DNA of 64,000 bases from positions 42,470,001 to 42,534,000 of the forward strand of contig NC_042998.1 of NCBI RefSeq assembly GCF_006345805.1, in the 5' to 3' direction. Numbering within the stretch: the first letter of the stretch is position 1; every line of letters begins with the position of its first letter. The position numbers were made by a program, and so were the translations under genes. Shown here one piece after another: positions 20,973-44,236 of the stretch. Below the pieces are notes generated by a model that was not told the DNA's origin, did not search any database, and saw only the letters and a list, made by a program, of their open reading frames with translations. The DNA is from Octopus sinensis (lineage: Eukaryota).

Positions 20973-21266
20973 TATCTGTAAATGTAATATGTGATAACTA
21001 TTTGGTAGTCATGATAAAATTCCGAGCTTCGGATGCCGAGGTGGAAATCCATGCCGCCATCTCTTCAGTTATCCAGCCATCGGAAAAATGTGTTTATTTA
21101 TCTTATGTAAAAGAAAGCTTTCCATCTCATACATTTATTTATCTTAGGCATTTTTCCGATGGCTGGATAACTGAAGAGATAGCAGCATGGATTTCCACCT
21201 CGACATTTGAAACTCAGAGTTTTATCATGGCTACCAAATAATTGTCACATATTACATTTACAGATA
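20973..21266. mobile_element. Inverted repeat (118-bp arms 20973-21090 and 21149-21266) with a hammerhead-like motif at 21166-21226
   Basis: GATAA-CTGAAGA-...-GAAA-CTCAGAG-TT-TTATC; the arms are reverse complements; TA runs nearby. Confidence 0.65.
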
Positions 21267-21328
21267 AATTCCTCTATTTACATAATATCGAGGTCTCTTT
21301 CTTTCTTTTGTTGTCTTACCGTTTTTAT

Positions 21329-21361
<33 letters not shown>

Positions 21362-21367
<6 letters not shown>

Positions 21368-22815
21368 TGTAGGTAGAAACTCTATAAGATGTACCCAGTG
21401 TAAGCTATGGACACATAAGAGGTGCAGCAATGTCAAAGGTAGGCTAACTGGGAAGATAGTTTTTGTATGTGGCAGATGCTCGGGAGCATTGACCTCCGAA
21501 AATCTGCAGAAAACAACTTCCGTCACTTTCCGGGGGGAAAAACTAGAAGTAGTTGATAGCTTCCGCTATCTAGGTGACCAAGTCAGTAGTGGGGGTGGGA
21601 GCGCTGAAAGTGTAACTGCTAGAATAAGAATAGCCTGGGCAAAGTTTAGGGAGCTCTTACCTCTGCTGGTGACTAAAGGCCTCTCGCTCAGAGTAAAAGG
21701 CAGACTGTATGATGCATGTGTACGAACAGCTATGCTACATGGCAGTGAAACATGGGCCGTGACTGCTGAGGACATGTGTAAGCTCGTGAGGAATGAAGCC
21801 AGTATGCTCCGATGGATGTGTAATGTCAGTGTACTTACTCGACAGAGCGTTAGTACCTTGAGGGAAATGTTGTACCTAAGAAGCATCAGTTGTGGTGTGC
21901 AAGAGAGACGATTGCGCTGGTATGGTCATGTGGCGAGAATGGATGAAGATAGGTGTGTGAGAAAGTGCCAATCCCTAGCAGTTGAGGGAACCCGTGGAAG
22001 AGGTAGACCCAGGAAAACCTGGGACGAGGTGGTGAAGCACGACCTTCGGACGTTAGGCCTCACCATGGAAATGACTAGAGACCGAGACCTATGGAAGTAT
22101 GCTGTGCGTGAGAAGACCCGGCAAGACTAGTGAAGCCATATCCCGTGGCCTCTACCTGGGACGTAGTCAGTCCACCTGTGCATACCTTCCTTATTGTGAC
22201 ACTTGAGAAGACCTGTTGAGGCAAGTGAAAATCAAAATCAAAACCAAATCAAAATAGATGTACATCAATGGAATTTGTATCCTATTTGTATCCTGTATGG
22301 TACCAGTGCCGGTGGCACATAAGAAAACCATCTGAACGTGACCGTAGCCAGTACCGCATCAACTGGCCTCCGTGCTGAGGGCATGTAACAAACACCATCC
22401 GAGCGTGGCCATTCGCCAGCCTCGTCTGGCACCTGTGCCGGTGACACATAAGAAAACACCATCCGAGCGTGGCCGTCTGCCAGCCTCGTCTGGCACCTGT
22501 GTAGGTGGCACATAAAAAACACCATCCGAGCGTGGCCGTCTGCCAGCCTCGTCTGGCACCTGTGTCGGTGGCACATAAAAAACACCATCCGAGCGTGGCC
22601 GTCTGCCAGCCTCGTCTGGCACCTGTGTCGGTGGCACATAAAATCACCCACTACACTCTCGGAGTGGTTGGCGTTAGGAAGGGCATCCAGCTGTAGAAAC
22701 ACTACCAGATCTGACTGGCCTGGTGCAGCCTTCGGGCTTGCCAGACCCCAGTTGAACCGTCCAACCCATGCTAGCATGGAAAGCGGACGTTAAACGATGA
22801 TGATGATGATGATAT
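21362..22815 (+). mobile_element. 5'-truncated RTE-clade LINE, young copy: intact C-terminal ORF2 to the stop at 22130, 3'UTR with ~61-bp tandem repeats, (GAT)n tail, inserted in (TA)n
   Basis: ORF contains FRYLG, RIRIAWAKF, HGSETW, RRLRWYGHVARM and RGRGRPRKTW, typical of the RTE post-RT region. Confidence 0.9.
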
Positions 22816-35240: not shown

Positions 35241-37752
35241 CTGAAACCAGAGAAAAATAAGTAATGACATGTTATTTCAAAATTAACAAACCAATGAATA
35301 AATAAAATGAAAAATAAATGAATAAGTGAATAAATAAATATGCAAAAATAATAAATAACAGAATAAATTAATAGATTTCTACTCTTGTAAAATACTTAAT
35401 TAGAATATTTCTCCAATTATATTACAAATGTTCCATGAGAAATTTCATTATTTTCATAATTTTATTTTTCTCTGTATGTCCATTTTGACATGAGAAGAAG
35501 GCCAGTTGTATTTGGTAAATACAATTTACTTGCCTGCGTCACCTTACTAGCACTTGTGCTGGTGGCACGTGAAAAACAAAATAACATTCGAGTGAGGTCG
35601 TTGCCAGTGCCACTAGACTGGCTCCTGTGCAGGTAGCATGTAAAAAGCACCATTTGAGCGTGGCCGGTGCCAGTACCACCTGACTGGCCCTCGTGCCGGT
35701 GGCATGTAAAAGCACCCACTACACTCTCGGAGTGGTTGGTGTTAGAAAGGGCATCCAGCTGTAGAAACTCTACCAGATCAGATTGGAGTCTGGTGTAGCC
35801 ATCTGGTTCACCAGACCTCAAGTCAAATTGTCCAACCCATGCTAGCATGGAAAGTGGATGTTAAACGATGGCAATGATGCTGATGGTGATGAATTATTGT
35901 TTGAAATTTTGGGATTAGTTTGCAATAGGGAATTCAAGCATTGAGGGAATTCAAGGGGTATTTAAAACTTTGGAGCAAGGACTGAGTTATGAACTTAATA
36001 GATTACAATAGAAAGTGTGATGATTTAACAGAGATGTAACAAATGGATATCTTTTATATTATTTTTAATTGTTATCAGCGTGGAGCTGGCAGAATACTTA
36101 GTATGCTGGACAAAATGCTTAGCTGCATTTCTTCTGGCTTTATGTGCTGAGTTTGAATTCCACCAAGGTTAACTTTGCTTTTCATCCTTTCAGGATCAAT
36201 AAAGGTCAAGTGTGACCTTCGTATGTTGGGCCTCACAGAGGCTATGACGAAAGACCGAGATCTCTGGAGATATGCTGTGACTTCGAAGACCCGACAAATG
36301 AAGTGAGTTCATGGCTTGCAGGATGACCTGCAGCTAACCCTGGTTCGTAGGGCAGCCTGCTGTGCTTGAGGAGACCTATTGAGTCAAGTACGTTAACACC
36401 AACATCAAAATGAAAATCAAATGGAAATTGTAGTTAAGATACCTGCGCCGGTGGCATGTAAAAACACCTTCCGAATGTGGCCGATGCCAGCACCGCCTAA
36501 GTGGCGTTCATATCGGTGACACATAAAAAGCACCAACCGATCGTGGCCATTTGCCAGCCTTCTCTGGCCCCTGTGCTGGTGGCACATTAAAAGCACCCAC
36601 TACACTCACAGAGTGGTTGGCATTAAGAAGTACATCCAGCAGTAGAAACACTGCCAAATCAGACTGGAGCCTGGCACAGACCCCGGTTGAACCGTCCAAC
36701 CCATGCTAGTATGGAAAACGGATGTTGAACGATGATGATGATGATGATGAGCACTGGGGTTAATGTAAACAACTACCCACCTCATCTCCAAAATTTTCAG
36801 ATCATGTACCCTTATTTTTTTTATCTTTTAGTCAGGAAAGAAGACTGTGATTATGACTTACTACAGAGCCTCAAAAATATGTGGGAGAGACATTCTTAGT
36901 CAGCGACCTGGATTGAATTCTTGTAACAGAATGGATTCTGACCAAGGTACCCAATGAACCAGGTGGTGTTAAACTGGGTAACAGATTAAGTGTACCATGC
37001 AAGAAGGCCAAGGTGAGATTTGAATTCAGAATGCAAAGAGCTGAATAAATATTGCAAAGCATCCCATCTGATGTCCTTGCTGTTCCACTAATCCATTGCA
37101 TTGAATTTGTACTTTTTATCCACCCCTAAAAGATGAAAGTAAAGTTGACCTAAGCAGGATCTGAACTCTGAGTGCAGTACAATATTAACTTGTAAACTTT
37201 TTATATACTTGGTGGTATACTATGGTTGCAAAACAAAATACTGTGTCCTTGCTATCAATTAATATTATATATTTGTGCATTATATCAGTTAACCCTTGCC
37301 TGTCCAAAGCATTTTCATGTTATAACTATCTTGTTTTTCTTTCCCTGGAACAATATAATCTGGAATACTTCATCCCATGTCTCCTTCCTTGGTAAGACTG
37401 TAGAGAGTTATTTGAAGGGTATTGGCTGATACTTTTAGTAGTCTGAGCAAACATTTAGAAGCTCCCCACCTTTACTGGTTTGAGGAAATGTAGTGTTTTC
37501 TTCATATATCATATATCTGTGGTTTGGTGTTTTTTTAAGTAGGTAAATTGTTATGTGCCATGGTGGAATATGCTTTAATTATTTGTGAAAAGATGTCTGT
37601 CAAAAGATATATGAGAATACAGTTTGAGAACAGCAGGTGAGAAGGGATTGTGCATCATCTACAGGTGCATGTAAGTGTGTGTGCATGTGTGTGTGAGTGA
37701 ATGAATGCATGTGTATGAAATGATGCTTATGTTAGAAAGAGTGCGAGTGACT

Positions 37753-37791
<39 letters not shown>

Positions 37792-39723
37792 CGTGCACGT
37801 GCATGTGCATTTGATTAGATGTAACAACTTGTAGCTCATTATTGTTAATAAGAAAAGAGCAGGAGAAATAATCAAATCCTGAAGTTGTCAGGATGAGACT
37901 TGGAGAGCATACAGTCAACACATACCTCAATGGAACAAGCTAATAGTAGGCTTTTAATCTGTGAAGTCTTTGAAGGAATAAAGAGCAAAGACTTTATTTT
38001 CAGTCATGTTTTTACGGGGAAGATCCCATAGTGAATGACATACAAGATAGTCTCCAGTATTTCTAGGATCTGTACAAATTATACTTGCAGTTTCTGTGAA
38101 GGGAAAGATGACTAAATTGATAAAAAGGTGGCCATTTACAATCATTTCCATTACTTTAAAGAAGCTGGAGATAAGAGCTAAAGATCAATAGTTGGTAGTG
38201 TTAGAAAAGTTTTCTTTGTTGGGTCTAGAAGGCATTGCTGTATGTTAAAATTAGAGAGTATTAACCTTTTGCCTGTCCTGTGTAATACAAGTAATATACA
38301 AGACACTAACCTTTCATCATCTGGCACAAGATCCCCTCTGGCACAATGCCCCTTCCCCTCTCAAAATTCCTTGTCTTGCAAGTTACTTGGTGACCCTGCC
38401 GGTGCTGGTGCCACATAAAAAGCATTCAGTTCACCCTGTGAAGTGGTTGGCATTTGGAAGGGCATCCAGCTATAAAAATCACGCCAACAAATTGACCCCA
38501 GTACATATTCTTAAAGTCTGTTACTTATTCTATTGGTCTCTTTAGCCAAACTGCTAAGTTATGGAGCTATAAACAAACCAACACCAGTTGTCAAACAATG
38601 GGAGTAGGAAACAAATATAAAGACACACACACACACATATATAAACGATGGGCTTCCACACAGTTTCTATCTACCAAATTCACTCACAAAGCATTAGTCA
38701 GCTCATGGCTATAATTGAAGATACTTGCCCATGGGTGTAAAGCAAGTTTCTTAATCACATTTGTAGTGCCTGTGAGGCCTTTGAAAATAAATGATAGTGA
38801 ATTTTTTTCCCGGGGCCCTTAACTCTTTGAAGGAGTCATAGTGGGCCCTATTGAGGTATATGGCATGTCTTGTGAATTTTAAGAACTCTCTAGGACTGGC
38901 TACAGCTAATTTCTTTCAGAAGAGAGAAAGGTGGGCAGAAAAAAATAAAACAGTAAGAGAAGTGGCCCCAGTACAGGAATAATACTTTACTTATTGACCC
39001 CGAAAAGATGAAAGGCTAAGTTGATCTCAGCAGGATTTGAATTCAAAGTAAAGAAGTCTGTAATGAATACTGCAAACCGATCTATCCAATGCTCCAACAC
39101 CTCTGCCCATTGGCTGCTGATACAAAAGTAATGTTATTAAGAAGAAAAGTAGAAATCATTGTTAAAGACATGTGTGACATTGTTTGATATTTCAGTTTTG
39201 AACTACAAGGGAGAAAGAAATTGATTCAAGACTGTAAAGAAAACTATTCAAATCAGATAAACATTATTATGTTAATGCTTAAAAGTGTATTATATGTCAA
39301 AGCTACCAGATGGCTTAACTGCAAGTCACAGCTTAAAAACTTTGTCAGCTTGACAATCTCTGAAAATAGTTTGACATTGACTTATTGATTTGATAAAATA
39401 ATTGTTTTAGCCGTTGTAATCAACTAAAATTGAAATTTACTTTGCAGGAAATGGTATTGATTTTTATCTCCTTTCCAGTTTTTATCTTTGACTCATCTCT
39501 GCTGTCCAGGCTATACTCTATACTCCAACTTTTCTCTGAAACATAGTGCCTGCATGTAGTGTATATAGAATCTGCAGGAGTGGCTGTGTGGTAAGTAGCT
39601 TGCTTACCAACCACATGGTTCCGGGTTCAGTCCCACTGCATGGCACCTTGGGCAAGTGTCTTCTACTATAGCCTCGGGCCGACCAAAGCCTTGTGAATAG
39701 ACGGAAACTGAAAGAAGCCCATC

Positions 39724-39828
<105 letters not shown>

Positions 39829-40853
39829 GTATATGTGTGTGTGTGTATGTGTATGTTTGTGTGTCTGTGTTTGTCCCCCCAACATCGCTTGACAACCGGT
39901 GCTGGTGTGTTTAAGTCTCCATCACTTAGCGGTTCAGCAAGAGAGACCGATAGAATAAGTCCTGGGGTCGATTTGCTTGACCAAAAGTGGTGCTCCAGCA
40001 TGGCCACAGTCAAATGACTGAAACAAATAAAGAAAAATAAATCCCTTCTTCCTATCATTTGCTTCTCAGTTGGACTTCCAATTACTGGTACAAGGTCTCT
40101 CTTCCCCCATTTCTTTATGTTTATTTGCTGTCTACACAGCTCTTTAAACTCCTCCAGTCACCATCAACTATTTGACTGTTTCATGTTTTCCATTACATGT
40201 CATCTGTTTCACTTTTCTCTAAAATTATTGTCCTTGGTCACTCAATGTATATAAACTCTTCTTGGTCCCTATATATTAACTCACAATATATTAACACTAT
40301 TGGTAAGAAAGTTTACCATTCTAATCTCTTTGCATTAGCTAGTATAAGCATAAAATGAATAGTGATCCTACCCAAAACATTCACTAATGGAGACATGGCA
40401 ATCTTTTTTCTTTTAACTTCACAAAGATACATTCACTACACATGTCAAGAAAACAATCTTGTACCTCACACTCTTTTGGACAATAAGCAATTAAAACTCT
40501 CAAAGTTGCAACAAATGTTGTTCTCATAATTTCTGAAAGTCACTTTTGCTTAGTTCCTGTTCTCAGCATAGCAAGAATTTTAATCTAAAGACTGTCCTTA
40601 TTCTTCAGAAGCAGGAAATATTTCAGCTCTAAAAATTTGCTCTGCTCTAAAATCAAAATCAGACATAAAATAGAATATTGTTCCCATATATGGGATGATA
40701 TACATAAACATCCTAGATTACACCCAAATGAACATCACCTAGTAGATTGTCAAAAATTCTCTCACTCATAAACTTCAACTGTTATTCCACAAATTCACTA
40801 CTTTTCCTATTTGCTTTTGCTACTGCACTACAATAGCATTTGTTTCTCTAGAC

Positions 40854-41189
40854 CAATGGTTCTAAATCAGGGTCCACATGGCTCCTGAGGATTCATATAA
40901 GATTTTTGAGGGTCCATGCAACAGAATAGTAAACAATAATATTTTAAGGGCCCTTGAAAAAGTTTTGCTTTAGATGTATATCGGTATGTATCGCAAGAAA
41001 CAGCTGAATTTCTTTCTCTAATATTTTACATGGTTCAGCCTACACAAGCTAATGTGTGAAAAACAAAATAGGAATTTTGGAAGAAGTTTCTATAAAACTA
41101 GTTTTTAAACATCAAAAGGTTACGAGGTTCCACCAGAATAAAATAGTAATGAAAAGAGTCCATAGATAAAAAATGGTTGAGAAATCCTG
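40854..41189. mobile_element. hAT (Charlie-type) non-autonomous DNA transposon
   Basis: 8-bp TSD CTCTAGAC (40846-40853 and 41190-41197); degenerate CAGGGGTTCTCAA-type TIRs. Confidence 0.75.
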
Positions 41190-41334
41190 CTCTAGACTAT
41201 CAAATTGTATAATTACCCCCACTCCATACACATCTCTTCTCTTGTCACCCTAACCAAACTTCATACCAACTACTGTGCACAAGAATCTCATTTCCATCTC
41301 TATAATTCCTTTCCCACTCAACATTTTTCTTTAG

Positions 41335-41537
41335 TTACGGAGATGTATTTGCATAGCAAGTGACCTGATCTGAGATCGTGTGCTGGAATGAAAACAATTG
41401 CAGCGTGGAAGGTGTTTATAAGCCATTTAAGAAACACACAAAAGCCGTTAGATTCACTTCAACATATAGATTTAATTTGTCAAAATATTTTCGTCTCTTT
41501 GAGACTGCGACCTGTTCACTGACAAAATTCTGTGCTG
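41335..41537 (-). mobile_element. 203-bp non-autonomous retroelement carrying a hammerhead, with a 13-bp TSD
   Basis: CATTTTTCTTTAG is duplicated at 41322-41334 and 41538-41550. Confidence 0.75.
41476..41526 (-). ncRNA. Minimal type I hammerhead ribozyme, G3-C8 core variant
   Basis: TTTGTCA-GTGAACA-G-GTCGC(AGTCTCAAA)GAGAC-GAAA-ATAT-TT-TGACAAA: 7-bp stem I, palindromic stem III AATATT. Confidence 0.7.
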
Positions 41538-43255
41538 CATTTTTCTTTAGGTTTTGACAGTTACTCAAGCTAAACAACCACAGTACTTCTCATGCCTTGG
41601 AAAATGTACAAATTTTAAATAGCTTCTTCTTTCAGACTATACTTTTAAAACCCAGCCGTTTTTTAATAACCATCATTGTATCGAAACTCATTGTATCATC
41701 TGACCAATTCTTAATCATGTCAGCACATTCCAAATACTCTTATTGTACAACCCCACCCACTTGAATGCTCTGCCAACAGATTATAGATCCACTACTTGTA
41801 CACCATGTTCCCCTGACTACAGTTTTATGTCAATCAATGGCACATTTGAACCAGTAACTGAAAACCATCTTCTGAGGCGAGTCCTTTTACATTTCTCACA
41901 CATTTATTTTCTTTAATTTTTTTTTTACTCTGAATTGTTCTACTTAGCAATCAGATTCATATATTGTATCCCTGTCTACAATATTTAATATTGCTTGTGA
42001 TGTGAATATGTATGTGCACTTTGCTAAGGAATATAGTATATATAATACATAATAGAAACCATTATAATCTATGATGGGTCTTTTAACTACATGCTAGTGA
42101 TAGTTTTCTTAAGTTTGCTTTTTTTTAGACAAGTATTATACAAATACCTGAATTTCATTGTTTGTTCTCAATAGTATGGATTTCTCATTTTATATAGAGA
42201 TTGTCATAGTTGCAGCAGAGCTATATGCCTCACTACAATGCTGTTAAAAGAATATTCTTTTACAGTCATCTCTCTCTCTCTCTCTCTCATTCATATGGTA
42301 TCAGAAACTTATTTTTGCTTGCATGACTTGCATGTTGACTGGCAATGGAAAAGAACATACTTTATACAAACTTACACTCCGATTTCTCTTTGAGCTAATG
42401 TACACAGATATAAAGACGCATTCATTGACATCTTTGTGTAAATACTAACTTTTGTTTGTCAGTCATTCAAACTTGACTTTTCTGTTTGTGTTCTCTATTG
42501 GCCCGATGGGGTTAATTTATTCTATTTAATGCTAGTAAATATGTTGTGGTTATTAACATGCAATCTTAACCTATATTCTCCTTTACAAAGTTATGTATGC
42601 ATTCTCCCAAAGCTTAAACCAATAAATTTTTGTCTTTTTGAATTAAAATGATTATCAGAAACATTATATATGTATATGTGTATTTATTATTATTTTTATT
42701 GTATTTTTGTATCTATATTCATGTAACATTGTCTGTTTTTCTGTCCTTGTTTTCATATACATTCGATGCTTTTTTCCAAGGAATATAATGCTCTTAGCTT
42801 AGTTTTTCCTTGGGGCTGGCCAGATTGGAGTAATCTCAAGATTAATCAGCCAAAATTGCAAGGATGATTGGGTTCTTGACTGAGGATAAAAGGCTTCAAA
42901 TGACTCGTCCTTATTTTTTGTATCGTCTATCTGGATGTTTTGTTGTCCCTTTCTATATCACCTAGTTGTCCAGATGTTTTGCATTCTTGTCCCATTTTGT
43001 GTTTTATATATATATATATATATATAATAGAAATATTAAAATTACTAAGTCTCTCTAAAGGAGATTACGGCAGCGTTACTGGATATTAATAGTTATTGCC
43101 ATACTAATATGGCAGTCTATAAACATAAGACTAAAGCTGTTGCTGATTAGCTCCAAGAGGCCACCACCTCTAGCTAGCTATATGACACACGAACCTGCGT
43201 CCATTACAACCTTCGAATAGGGGAGGTCAGCCGCTTCACCTTGATAGTCAGACAT

Positions 43256-43296
43256 CTGCAGACATGTTTCAGGGTTGTTGCTCTTTATCAATGCAG
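43256..43296 (-). ncRNA. Minimal hammerhead in the inverted copy, with one stem II mismatch
   Basis: Reverse complement of the same motif, with AGAG/CCCT in stem II. Confidence 0.65.
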
Positions 43297-43374
43297 CGTA
43301 GTCAGAACCAGCAGGTGTCGCTACTGACCGTCTGTTCGAAGATTTTATTTACCTAGTTACAGTAGAATACTACG

Positions 43375-43415
43375 CTGCATTGATAAAGGGCAACAACCCT
43401 GAAACATGTCTGCAG
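43375..43415 (+). ncRNA. Minimal type I hammerhead ribozyme, U3-A8 core variant (copy 1)
   Basis: CTGCA-TTGATAA-AGGG(CAACAA)CCCT-GAAA-CATG-TC-TGCAG: 5-bp stem I, 4-bp stem II, palindromic stem III ACATGT, GUC cleavage triplet. Confidence 0.8.
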
Positions 43416-43736
43416 ATGTCTGACAAGCAAGGTGAAGCAGCTGACCTCCCCTGTTCGAAGGTTGTAATGGACGCAGGTTCGTGTGTCATATAGCTAGCTA
43501 GAGGCGGTGGCCTCTTGGACCTAATCAGTGGCAGCTTTAGTCTTATGTTTATAGACTGCCATATTAGTATGGCGATAACTATTAATATCCAGTAACGCTG
43601 CCGTAATCTCCTTTAGAGAGACTTAGTAATTTTAATATTTCTATTATTGAAAACAAGTGGATGTATTCCACTGTAACTAGGTAAATAAAATCTTCGAACA
43701 GACGGTCAGTAGCGACACCTGCTGGTTCTGACTAAG

Positions 43737-43777
43737 CTGCATTGATAAAGGGCAACAACCCTGAAACATGTCTGCAG
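43737..43777 (+). ncRNA. Minimal type I hammerhead ribozyme, U3-A8 core variant (copy 2)
   Basis: Identical 41-nt motif, 362 nt downstream of copy 1. Confidence 0.8.
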
Positions 43778-43948
43778 ATGTCTGACTAGCAAGGTGAAGC
43801 GGCTGATCTCCCCTGTTCGAAGGTTGTAATGGATGCAAGTTCGTGTGTCATATAGCTAGCTAGAGGCGGTGGCCTCTTGGAGCTAATCAGCGACAGCTTT
43901 AGTCTTATGTTTATAGACTGCCATATTAGTATGGCGATAACTATTAAT

Positions 43949-44017
<69 letters not shown>

Positions 44018-44236
44018 TTTTAAAAAGTGATAATCAAACAAGCATGTTCAAACTATATTCAAAATCATTTTCAGAACCCTTTTATTTGCAGGAAACAAAA
44101 ACAGAAATAGACAAACATCAACAGTATTGGTTTATTTTGATAAACTATTAAACCAATATGTATACAAATGTTTATGTCACACTCTGTGCATTTAGCTAGC
44201 TTATCTGAAAAAAAAGTTACAATTCATATGACTTGC

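Follow-up and report, generated by a model that had tools for sequence, protein, structure and literature searches.

What is a hammerhead ribozyme with a reversed tertiary 3-8 pair doing in an intron of an octopus gene, and did it play any part in getting there? The question is posed by a short insertion in the window, that is, the whole 64,000-nt stretch of Octopus sinensis DNA analysed here (contig NC_042998.1; all positions below are window positions). The initial annotation had read it as a short non-autonomous retroposon headed by a ribozyme that may cut itself out of host transcripts. We agree that it was retroposed and that it lacks a Pol III head; however, it is almost certainly a piece of a Penelope-like element (PLE), consisting of a pLTR end and the first 92 nt of an RT plus GIY-YIG ORF, and as such the start of an autonomous element. 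In our preferred reading, to which we assign a probability of roughly 0.7, it represents, as a lone insertion, the first ~205 nt of the predicted PLE transcript, internally primed on uncut and probably capped RNA.

The host is a TBC1D2B-like gene that encodes PH and TBC domains; tblastn placed it on the minus strand at 1513-52935, with no fewer than 17 exons. Because the insertion lies between two minus-strand exons of this gene (44314-44222 and 35276-35160), in an intron at 35277..44221 whose edges are the approximate exon edges given by tblastn, it is sense to the pre-mRNA, as had been claimed; against a prior of 50%, the sense orientation of one copy shows nothing. The same intron holds a second PLE-like insertion at 43050-43950, in which two direct copies 362 bp apart each carry a U3-A8 hammerhead motif on the plus strand (43380 and 43742), antisense to the host, and which also has an inverted partner and terminates in (TA)n; the two motifs on one RNA could allow a dimer to form. 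At 40847-41198 lies a short element that, by eye, is bounded by an 8-bp direct repeat and has inverted termini, and that resembles what we take to be a hAT MITE; a LINE-type reverse transcriptase fragment, presumably RTE-like, occupies the plus strand of a host intron at 21183-22130.

We number the element along the minus strand, position 1 being 41537 and position p being 41538 - p. By similarity to its family and to full elements, positions 1-203 (41335..41537) are a solo PLE pLTR end, or 5' transcript end, flanked by the 13-bp TSD that had been described, with the 3' copy at 41322..41334 and the 5' copy at 41538..41550. The last three nucleotides of the latter (ATG on the minus strand, positions -2 to 0) belong to the TSD end and to the element sequence alike, a microhomology that places the true start of the element at about position -2 or -4. 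The start codon (41426-41424, positions 112-114 of the 203-nt segment) opens the first 92 nt, or about 31 codons, of the PLE ORF (41335..41426). The last part of the segment, 41335..41391, lies between the two 3' ends preferred in the family, near positions 146 and 203, and corresponds to the PLE "tail" (compare PMC11167929). The annotated lack of a tRNA head is borne out, in that ARAGORN found no tRNA in 41000-42000 and that Rfam and ARAGORN gave no sign of a tRNA-, 7SL- or 5S-derived SINE head. A DNA transposon (MITE), at which a short complementarity of the ends hinted, was dismissed on account of the variable TSD length, the ragged 5' ends and a parent that codes for an RT.

The PLE-type type I hammerhead motif, recognised from the sequence, the family fold and covariation with relatives, spans 41476..41526 on the minus strand. 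A 7-bp stem I (41526-41520 with 41482-41476) leads into the core G3-U4-G5-A6-A7-C8-A9 (GUGAACA, 41519-41513), which is followed by an extra G (41512), stem II (41511-41507 with 41497-41493), GAAA (41492-41489), the palindromic stem III (AAUAUU, 41489-41484) and U17 (41483); by hammerhead numbering, the predicted cleavage site falls after the triplet UUU, between 41483 and 41482, which is after position 55. The stem I, core, stem III and UUU that the initial annotation had read on this strand are all there, and the palindrome is actually 10 nt long and takes in A13 and A14. The layout is that of a type I hammerhead, with a three-way junction, a Watson-Crick 3-8 pair, GAAA and an NUH triplet; compared with the consensus CUGANGA, its core differs at positions 3 and 8. 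A relaxed hammerhead descriptor gave six matches in the window (two on the minus and four on the plus strand, overlapping parses being left unmerged), compared with none in 58 of 60 shuffled controls and one in each of the other two. Rfam had no match at the gathering threshold over the whole window, and an E-value search of 41200-41700 returned two weak unrelated matches and no hammerhead.

The individual copy in the window is probably not a working ribozyme. A rare C-to-A change at 41496 breaks its stem II and favours an alternative hairpin; the resulting G-A mismatch, which had been pointed out as a weakness of this copy, is real here and rare in the family, the same change occurring in three of 206 pieces and G-C in 148, in a set that includes loci selected on hammerhead sequence. 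Since stem II is mismatched and the predicted fold base-pairs the core, the copy is probably inactive; it probably misfolds, to judge from the folding model, and as a single intronic copy it is probably inert.

The family is large and keeps the motif. The genome contains 2756 candidate copies, of which 40 were scored, the best being 94-96% identical to the window element, and a 34-nt probe from the 3' part has 1037 exact genomic matches as opposed to none for the reversed control. Of 100 listed probe matches, 90, minus one tandem duplicate, make up the 89-locus set used below for unbiased counts. For the majority sequence of the family, the predicted fold is a hammerhead whose 5-bp stem II is perfect. 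Among the 52 copies of the 89-locus set that cover the motif, G3-C8 is found in 45 and the UUU triplet in 48; the double change C3G plus G8C, which the initial annotation had noted in this copy, is the family-wide state.

On the upstream side of the element the RNA reads left a loose end in common, a motif with 708 genomic matches at up to two mismatches. Walking upstream from this long form, one crosses a microsatellite-rich spacer of ~1 kb and then meets a GIY-YIG coding end; walking back from the ORF start, one arrives at the same 203-nt segment, continuous with the ORF. Two loci, L207 and L210, are pLTR-ORF-pLTR tandems that have the segment at both ends, its upstream copy running into an ORF of ~1070 codons interrupted by frameshifts; identity between the window copy and the two pLTR copies is 93-94% for L207 and 89-90% for L210. 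In full copies the frame that opens in the 203-nt segment leads on into RT and GIY-YIG. At a further locus (L214:3455-6484, minus strand) an uninterrupted frame of 1010 aa, 5'-truncated by ~57 codons, contains DKS, GGAIG, YVDD, a CX3CxxC linker, GIVY..YIG and CCHH residues, and suggests that the parent PLE was recently active. The five best fold matches of its predicted structure (pLDDT 77.7) are telomerase RTs, with E-values from 8e-6 to 1e-4; no match to the parent ORF came from a Pfam search, and no solved structure from a PDB sequence search. The parent combines a telomerase-related RT with a C-terminal GIY-YIG and has its ORF start within tandem pLTRs, and family copies show the inverted 5'-truncated partner and the optional tail expected of PLEs; by motif comparison, made by eye, it is an EN+ PLE of Neptune/Nematis type.

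An endonuclease search of cluster representatives gave 197 matches. A young GIY-YIG PLE with frames of 781 aa was considered as the parent and rejected, the element being unmatched in the 20 GIY-YIG loci that were examined and the young PLE family having a U3-A8 motif of its own. L097, L098 and L107, together with several 781-aa frames, belong to this apparently intact, Neptune-like family, which has the U3-A8 hammerhead 3' of the ORF. The parent ORF matches the genome's other GIY-YIG PLE only weakly (26% over 89 aa).

Like the Neptune/Nematis-type EN+ PLEs in the portions of Craig et al. 2021 (PMC8557442) and Arkhipova et al. 2013 (PMC3846280) used here, the octopus PLE has RT followed by GIY-YIG, a CX2-5CxxC linker, CCHH residues, (TA)n targets, partial tandems, inverted 5'-truncated copies, an optional tail and a pLTR that includes the first codons. 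It differs from them in its longer ORF (~1070 aa) with DKS and in the microsatellite-rich spacer of ~1 kb that precedes the ribozyme; the part of the PMC8557442 supplement compared did not turn up two of its RT motifs, and, by eye only, the Nematis rows come closest to its endonuclease.

If the motif is a true hammerhead, its stems and its 3-8 pair should be expected to covary among homologues, and this is what we see. The genome also contains a sister PLE family, with ~33-38% identity over the N-terminal region. Ahead of its start codon lies a similarly laid out motif that has the same extra G, and in which stems I, II and III differ in bases yet still pair; the 3-8 pair is C-G in eight of nine parsed copies and U-G in the ninth. 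Metagenome relatives were scanned at nine loci, three of which (L356, L357 and L359) have a motif 3' of the ORF; the extra G is present in all three and U17 in two, the 3-8 pair is C3-G8 in L357 and L359 and U3-A8 in L356, and the distance from core to start codon is 95 nt in L357 as compared with 93 in the window family. The covariation asked for by the initial annotation was thus found, judged by eye from the parsed motifs of the sister family and the three relatives, the MAFFT alignment with the sister family having been used solely for the region downstream of the ribozyme. With the sister family and the metagenome relatives, three Watson-Crick pairs (C-G, U-A and G-C) occur at 3-8 in one lineage; the correspondingly placed hammerheads of related PLEs have C3-G8 or U3-A8 along with stem changes that compensate, which makes the swap a case of natural covariation. 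The window motif is therefore a true hammerhead homologue, the ordinary pLTR ribozyme of this PLE lineage but for its reversed 3-8 pair, and G3-C8 is a new core variant of an already known PLE hammerhead. The sister-family core, CUGAUGC, has C in place of A9 in eight of the nine parsed copies (L233, L239, L280, L283, L286, L288, L291 and L292), a further core variant, and L356 likewise has C9.

Published hammerheads provide a context for this variant. The minimal type I hammerheads of metazoan PLEs in the part of Cervera and De la Pena 2014 (PMC4209133) considered here also lie in the pLTR, and share with the octopus motif an extra nucleotide between 9 and 10.1, G10.1-C11.1 and a palindrome of 15.2-16.2 plus loop 3; they too occur chiefly as lone truncated copies, in some cases on opposite strands. 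The differences are that the extra base, A, C or U by consensus in that survey, is G in the octopus family, that stem I is longer in the latter (at least 7 bp), and that the cores in the Fig. S3 rows considered begin CUGA or UUGA and in no case GUGA. The same rows have frequent U17, a UUU site for Crassostrea and no G3, which weakens the earlier caveat that UUU usually cleaves poorly. U3-A8 is described as the natural covariation of the 3-8 pair in PMC3088659, and G3-C8 only as an engineered variant, in PMC11167929 and PMC3884650. No natural G3-C8 hammerhead was found in the literature searched, from which absence from print does not follow, and a search for octopus PLE hammerheads yielded nothing relevant.

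How the copies were made can be read from their ends. Among the 89 probe-chosen copies, 40 have their 5' ends at -4 to +2, 22 at 4-49 and 25 beyond 62, whereas two (at 54 and 62) end near the predicted cut (50-62), no excess over an even truncation spread; none is a long form or runs on into the ORF. At position -5 the eight long copies all have C, as opposed to G in 12 of the 22 short ones (binomial p 9e-5 against 17.5% G), and beyond this point the short copies are unrelated; genome-wide, A is found here in 36 of 357 matches, and a hand count of the first 100 of the other 321 gave 45 G, 44 C and 11 T. In LINE insertions, an extra G at the 5' junction marks a copied cap or a non-templated C. 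The 3' ends of 30 loci selected on upstream sequence alone fall at 197-203 in 13, at 139-147 in 12 and elsewhere in five. An inverted head-to-head 5' partner accompanies 46 of the 89 probe-chosen copies, 32 of these ending at 140-148. TSDs are variable, an exact one of at least 8 bp being found in nine of 43 simple copies by a strict exact-match search.

Because the cut would fall after position 55, yet the 5' ends pile up upstream of it, the templates were not cleavage products; and two fixed 3' ends combined with inverted partners make up the internal-priming tail signature of PLEs, for which PMC8557442 and PMC3846280 give the description and PMC11167929 two internal RT initiation sites that bound the tail, unprocessed RNA being the chief substrate. 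We thus regard it as probable that the copies arose by internal priming on uncut RNA. The element protein would nick AT-rich DNA and start reverse transcription inside uncut RNA, near the 5' end of that RNA. Transcription would begin at the A of an initiator-like TCAG, at position -4; the RT, for which ~146 and ~203 would be the start sites, would prime at one or the other, reach the end of the RNA and copy the cap as the extra G, while second-strand priming at ~146 would give rise to the inverted partner. The hammerhead does not set the ends of the inserted copies. Three loci (L226, L228 and L229) hold copies that enter the ORF for ~285 nt and then jump back to the element's 5' end, a structure that suggests template jumps and one more site at which the RT starts.

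The closest published parallel is PAc, the Poseidon element of Anolis carolinensis, as far as the account in Frangieh et al. 2024 (PMC11167929) was followed: its hammerhead likewise lies at the pLTR/ORF junction, and it shares the two internal RT starts bounding a tail, AT-rich targets and an uncut RNA template. The octopus element differs in its ~57-nt tail, in having the ORF start 3' of the ribozyme and in its Zn-finger-like linker, and G3-C8, an engineered rescue in PAc, is its natural family state.

Could the ribozyme itself have made these copies, by excising a retroposon from host transcripts as was first proposed? Speaking for this are a genuine homologue of the hammerhead close to the 5' end, the absence of a tRNA head and the presence of family copies in RNA runs. 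Mapping the 5' ends, however, went against it: the two of 89 that lie near the cut, as compared with 40 at -4 to +2, match even truncation, a cut 55-60 nt into the element would take half of the ribozyme away, and the segment belongs to a coding PLE, so that we find self-excision hardly credible. As to the RNA, in runs that are apparently unstranded, probably from another species and sampled at ~6% each, a fraction of 0.84-0.86 of the aligned reads continues into unlike flanks, both mate directions are about equally frequent and no pile of ends occurs; these data show the family riding as a passenger in transcripts. No end-to-start (circular) joint was among the 15 RNA joints listed of 24, from a library ill-suited to detecting one. 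Alternatively, since the sequence upstream reads as a branch point, a pyrimidine tract and AG, splicing could set the 5' end, which would then be the 3' splice site of a pLTR intron, short copies deriving from spliced RNA truncated at the junction. CTAAC, a pyrimidine tract and AG do stand directly before position -2 in 30 long loci, themselves selected on the motif, and the D. virilis Penelope intron is described as ending at helix I (PMC4209133, PMC2377424). Yet no common exon-1 sequence precedes the 22 and the 30 short loci, an acceptor of this kind is absent from the corresponding place in the sister family and, as a weak indication given that repeats were skipped and the species is probably another, the 15 RNA joints listed of 17 on the long copy include no GT..AG; splicing at this boundary seems to us very improbable.

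A different challenge comes from the abundance of the short form, which might now copy itself as a SINE- or retrozyme-like subfamily, non-autonomous in that its own copies supply the transcripts and PLE protein mobilises them in trans. Copies bearing the ORF are few, its 5' region having 34 genomic matches versus 1037 for the probe, and with no long form among the 89 probe-chosen copies, the short ones may come from a separate source; moreover, a head-to-tail multimer exists (L021), and retrozymes are derived from pLTRs in bioRxiv 10.64898/2026.07.22.740005. On the other hand, the short form has no upstream sequence, tandems are rare among the loci examined (L021 and L053/L054), a solo copy stops at an RT start site that the enzyme may need to pass, and neither the extra G nor the two 3' ends require a separate source. 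The octopus copies do resemble non-LTR retrozymes, as these appear in the sections used of Cervera and De la Pena 2020 (PMC7229834) and of the bioRxiv report, in being short, non-coding and pLTR-derived and in having a type I hammerhead and long TSDs; but they keep the ORF start, match a coding parent and are mostly solo or head-to-head where retrozymes form tandem arrays, and the window copy, being solo, lacks the tandem hammerhead units that are the retrozyme hallmark. We regard an independent subfamily as improbable, and return to internal priming on the parent transcript as the preferred account.

This leaves the activity of the ribozyme. We lean modestly towards a family hammerhead that is catalytically active, and we would predict it to cleave weakly, only as a dimer or with the help of protein. 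PLE hammerheads are reported in PMC4209133, which also describes the extra base and the palindrome, to be weak in vitro and dimer-dependent, and the engineered C3G/G8C double mutant in PMC11167929 is partly active. The G3-C8/UUU motif might instead be viewed as a catalytically dead relic kept as structure only, which would be compatible with its PLE origin. In favour of such a relic, the 10-nt palindrome can, in the models, sequester A13 and A14, stem I forming instead between the two molecules of the predicted dimer; the in vitro activity of PLE hammerheads is weak (PMC4209133), and insertion in vitro does not require them (PMC11167929). The pair is also broken to G3-G8 in five of nine ORF-leading motifs (L179, L180, L181, L182 and L229), as compared with two of 38 other long copies and three of 153 short copies, in a count where near-duplicates make up three of the five and shared descent is possible; this would agree with a ribozyme that can be dispensed with, or with selection in full tandems for one that is dead. 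Against a relic, two transversions that restore a Watson-Crick pair would be hard to fix without selection, L207 and L210 differ in loop II yet keep the core, stem I and stem II pairing, and the remaining core is intact. On balance we think a relic possible and somewhat doubtful. A bolder idea, which we hold only tentatively and think unlikely, is that we have here the first active G3-C8 hammerhead from nature, and that it serves as a brake, cutting transcripts that contain two ribozymes while 205-nt, strong-stop-like cDNAs flood the genome. If so, the cut transcripts would be those of full tandem elements and the cDNAs would be primed near the cap, the C-G, U-A and G-C set would be completed within one PLE lineage, and the enrichment of G3-G8 in ORF-leading motifs (five of nine versus three of 153 in short copies) would be explained.

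G3-C8 is a standard laboratory rescue mutant, and a family in which it is fixed puts the 3-8 tertiary pair to the test in nature; it also means that genome scans with CUGANGA and UUGANAA descriptors miss whole families. The anatomy of the copies, with 5' ends that pile up and carry an extra G, two preferred 3' ends and none at the cut, provides genomic support from a mollusc for internal priming on uncut RNA, previously described in vitro for one lizard PLE in the part of PMC11167929 considered, and also bears on what PLE hammerheads are for.
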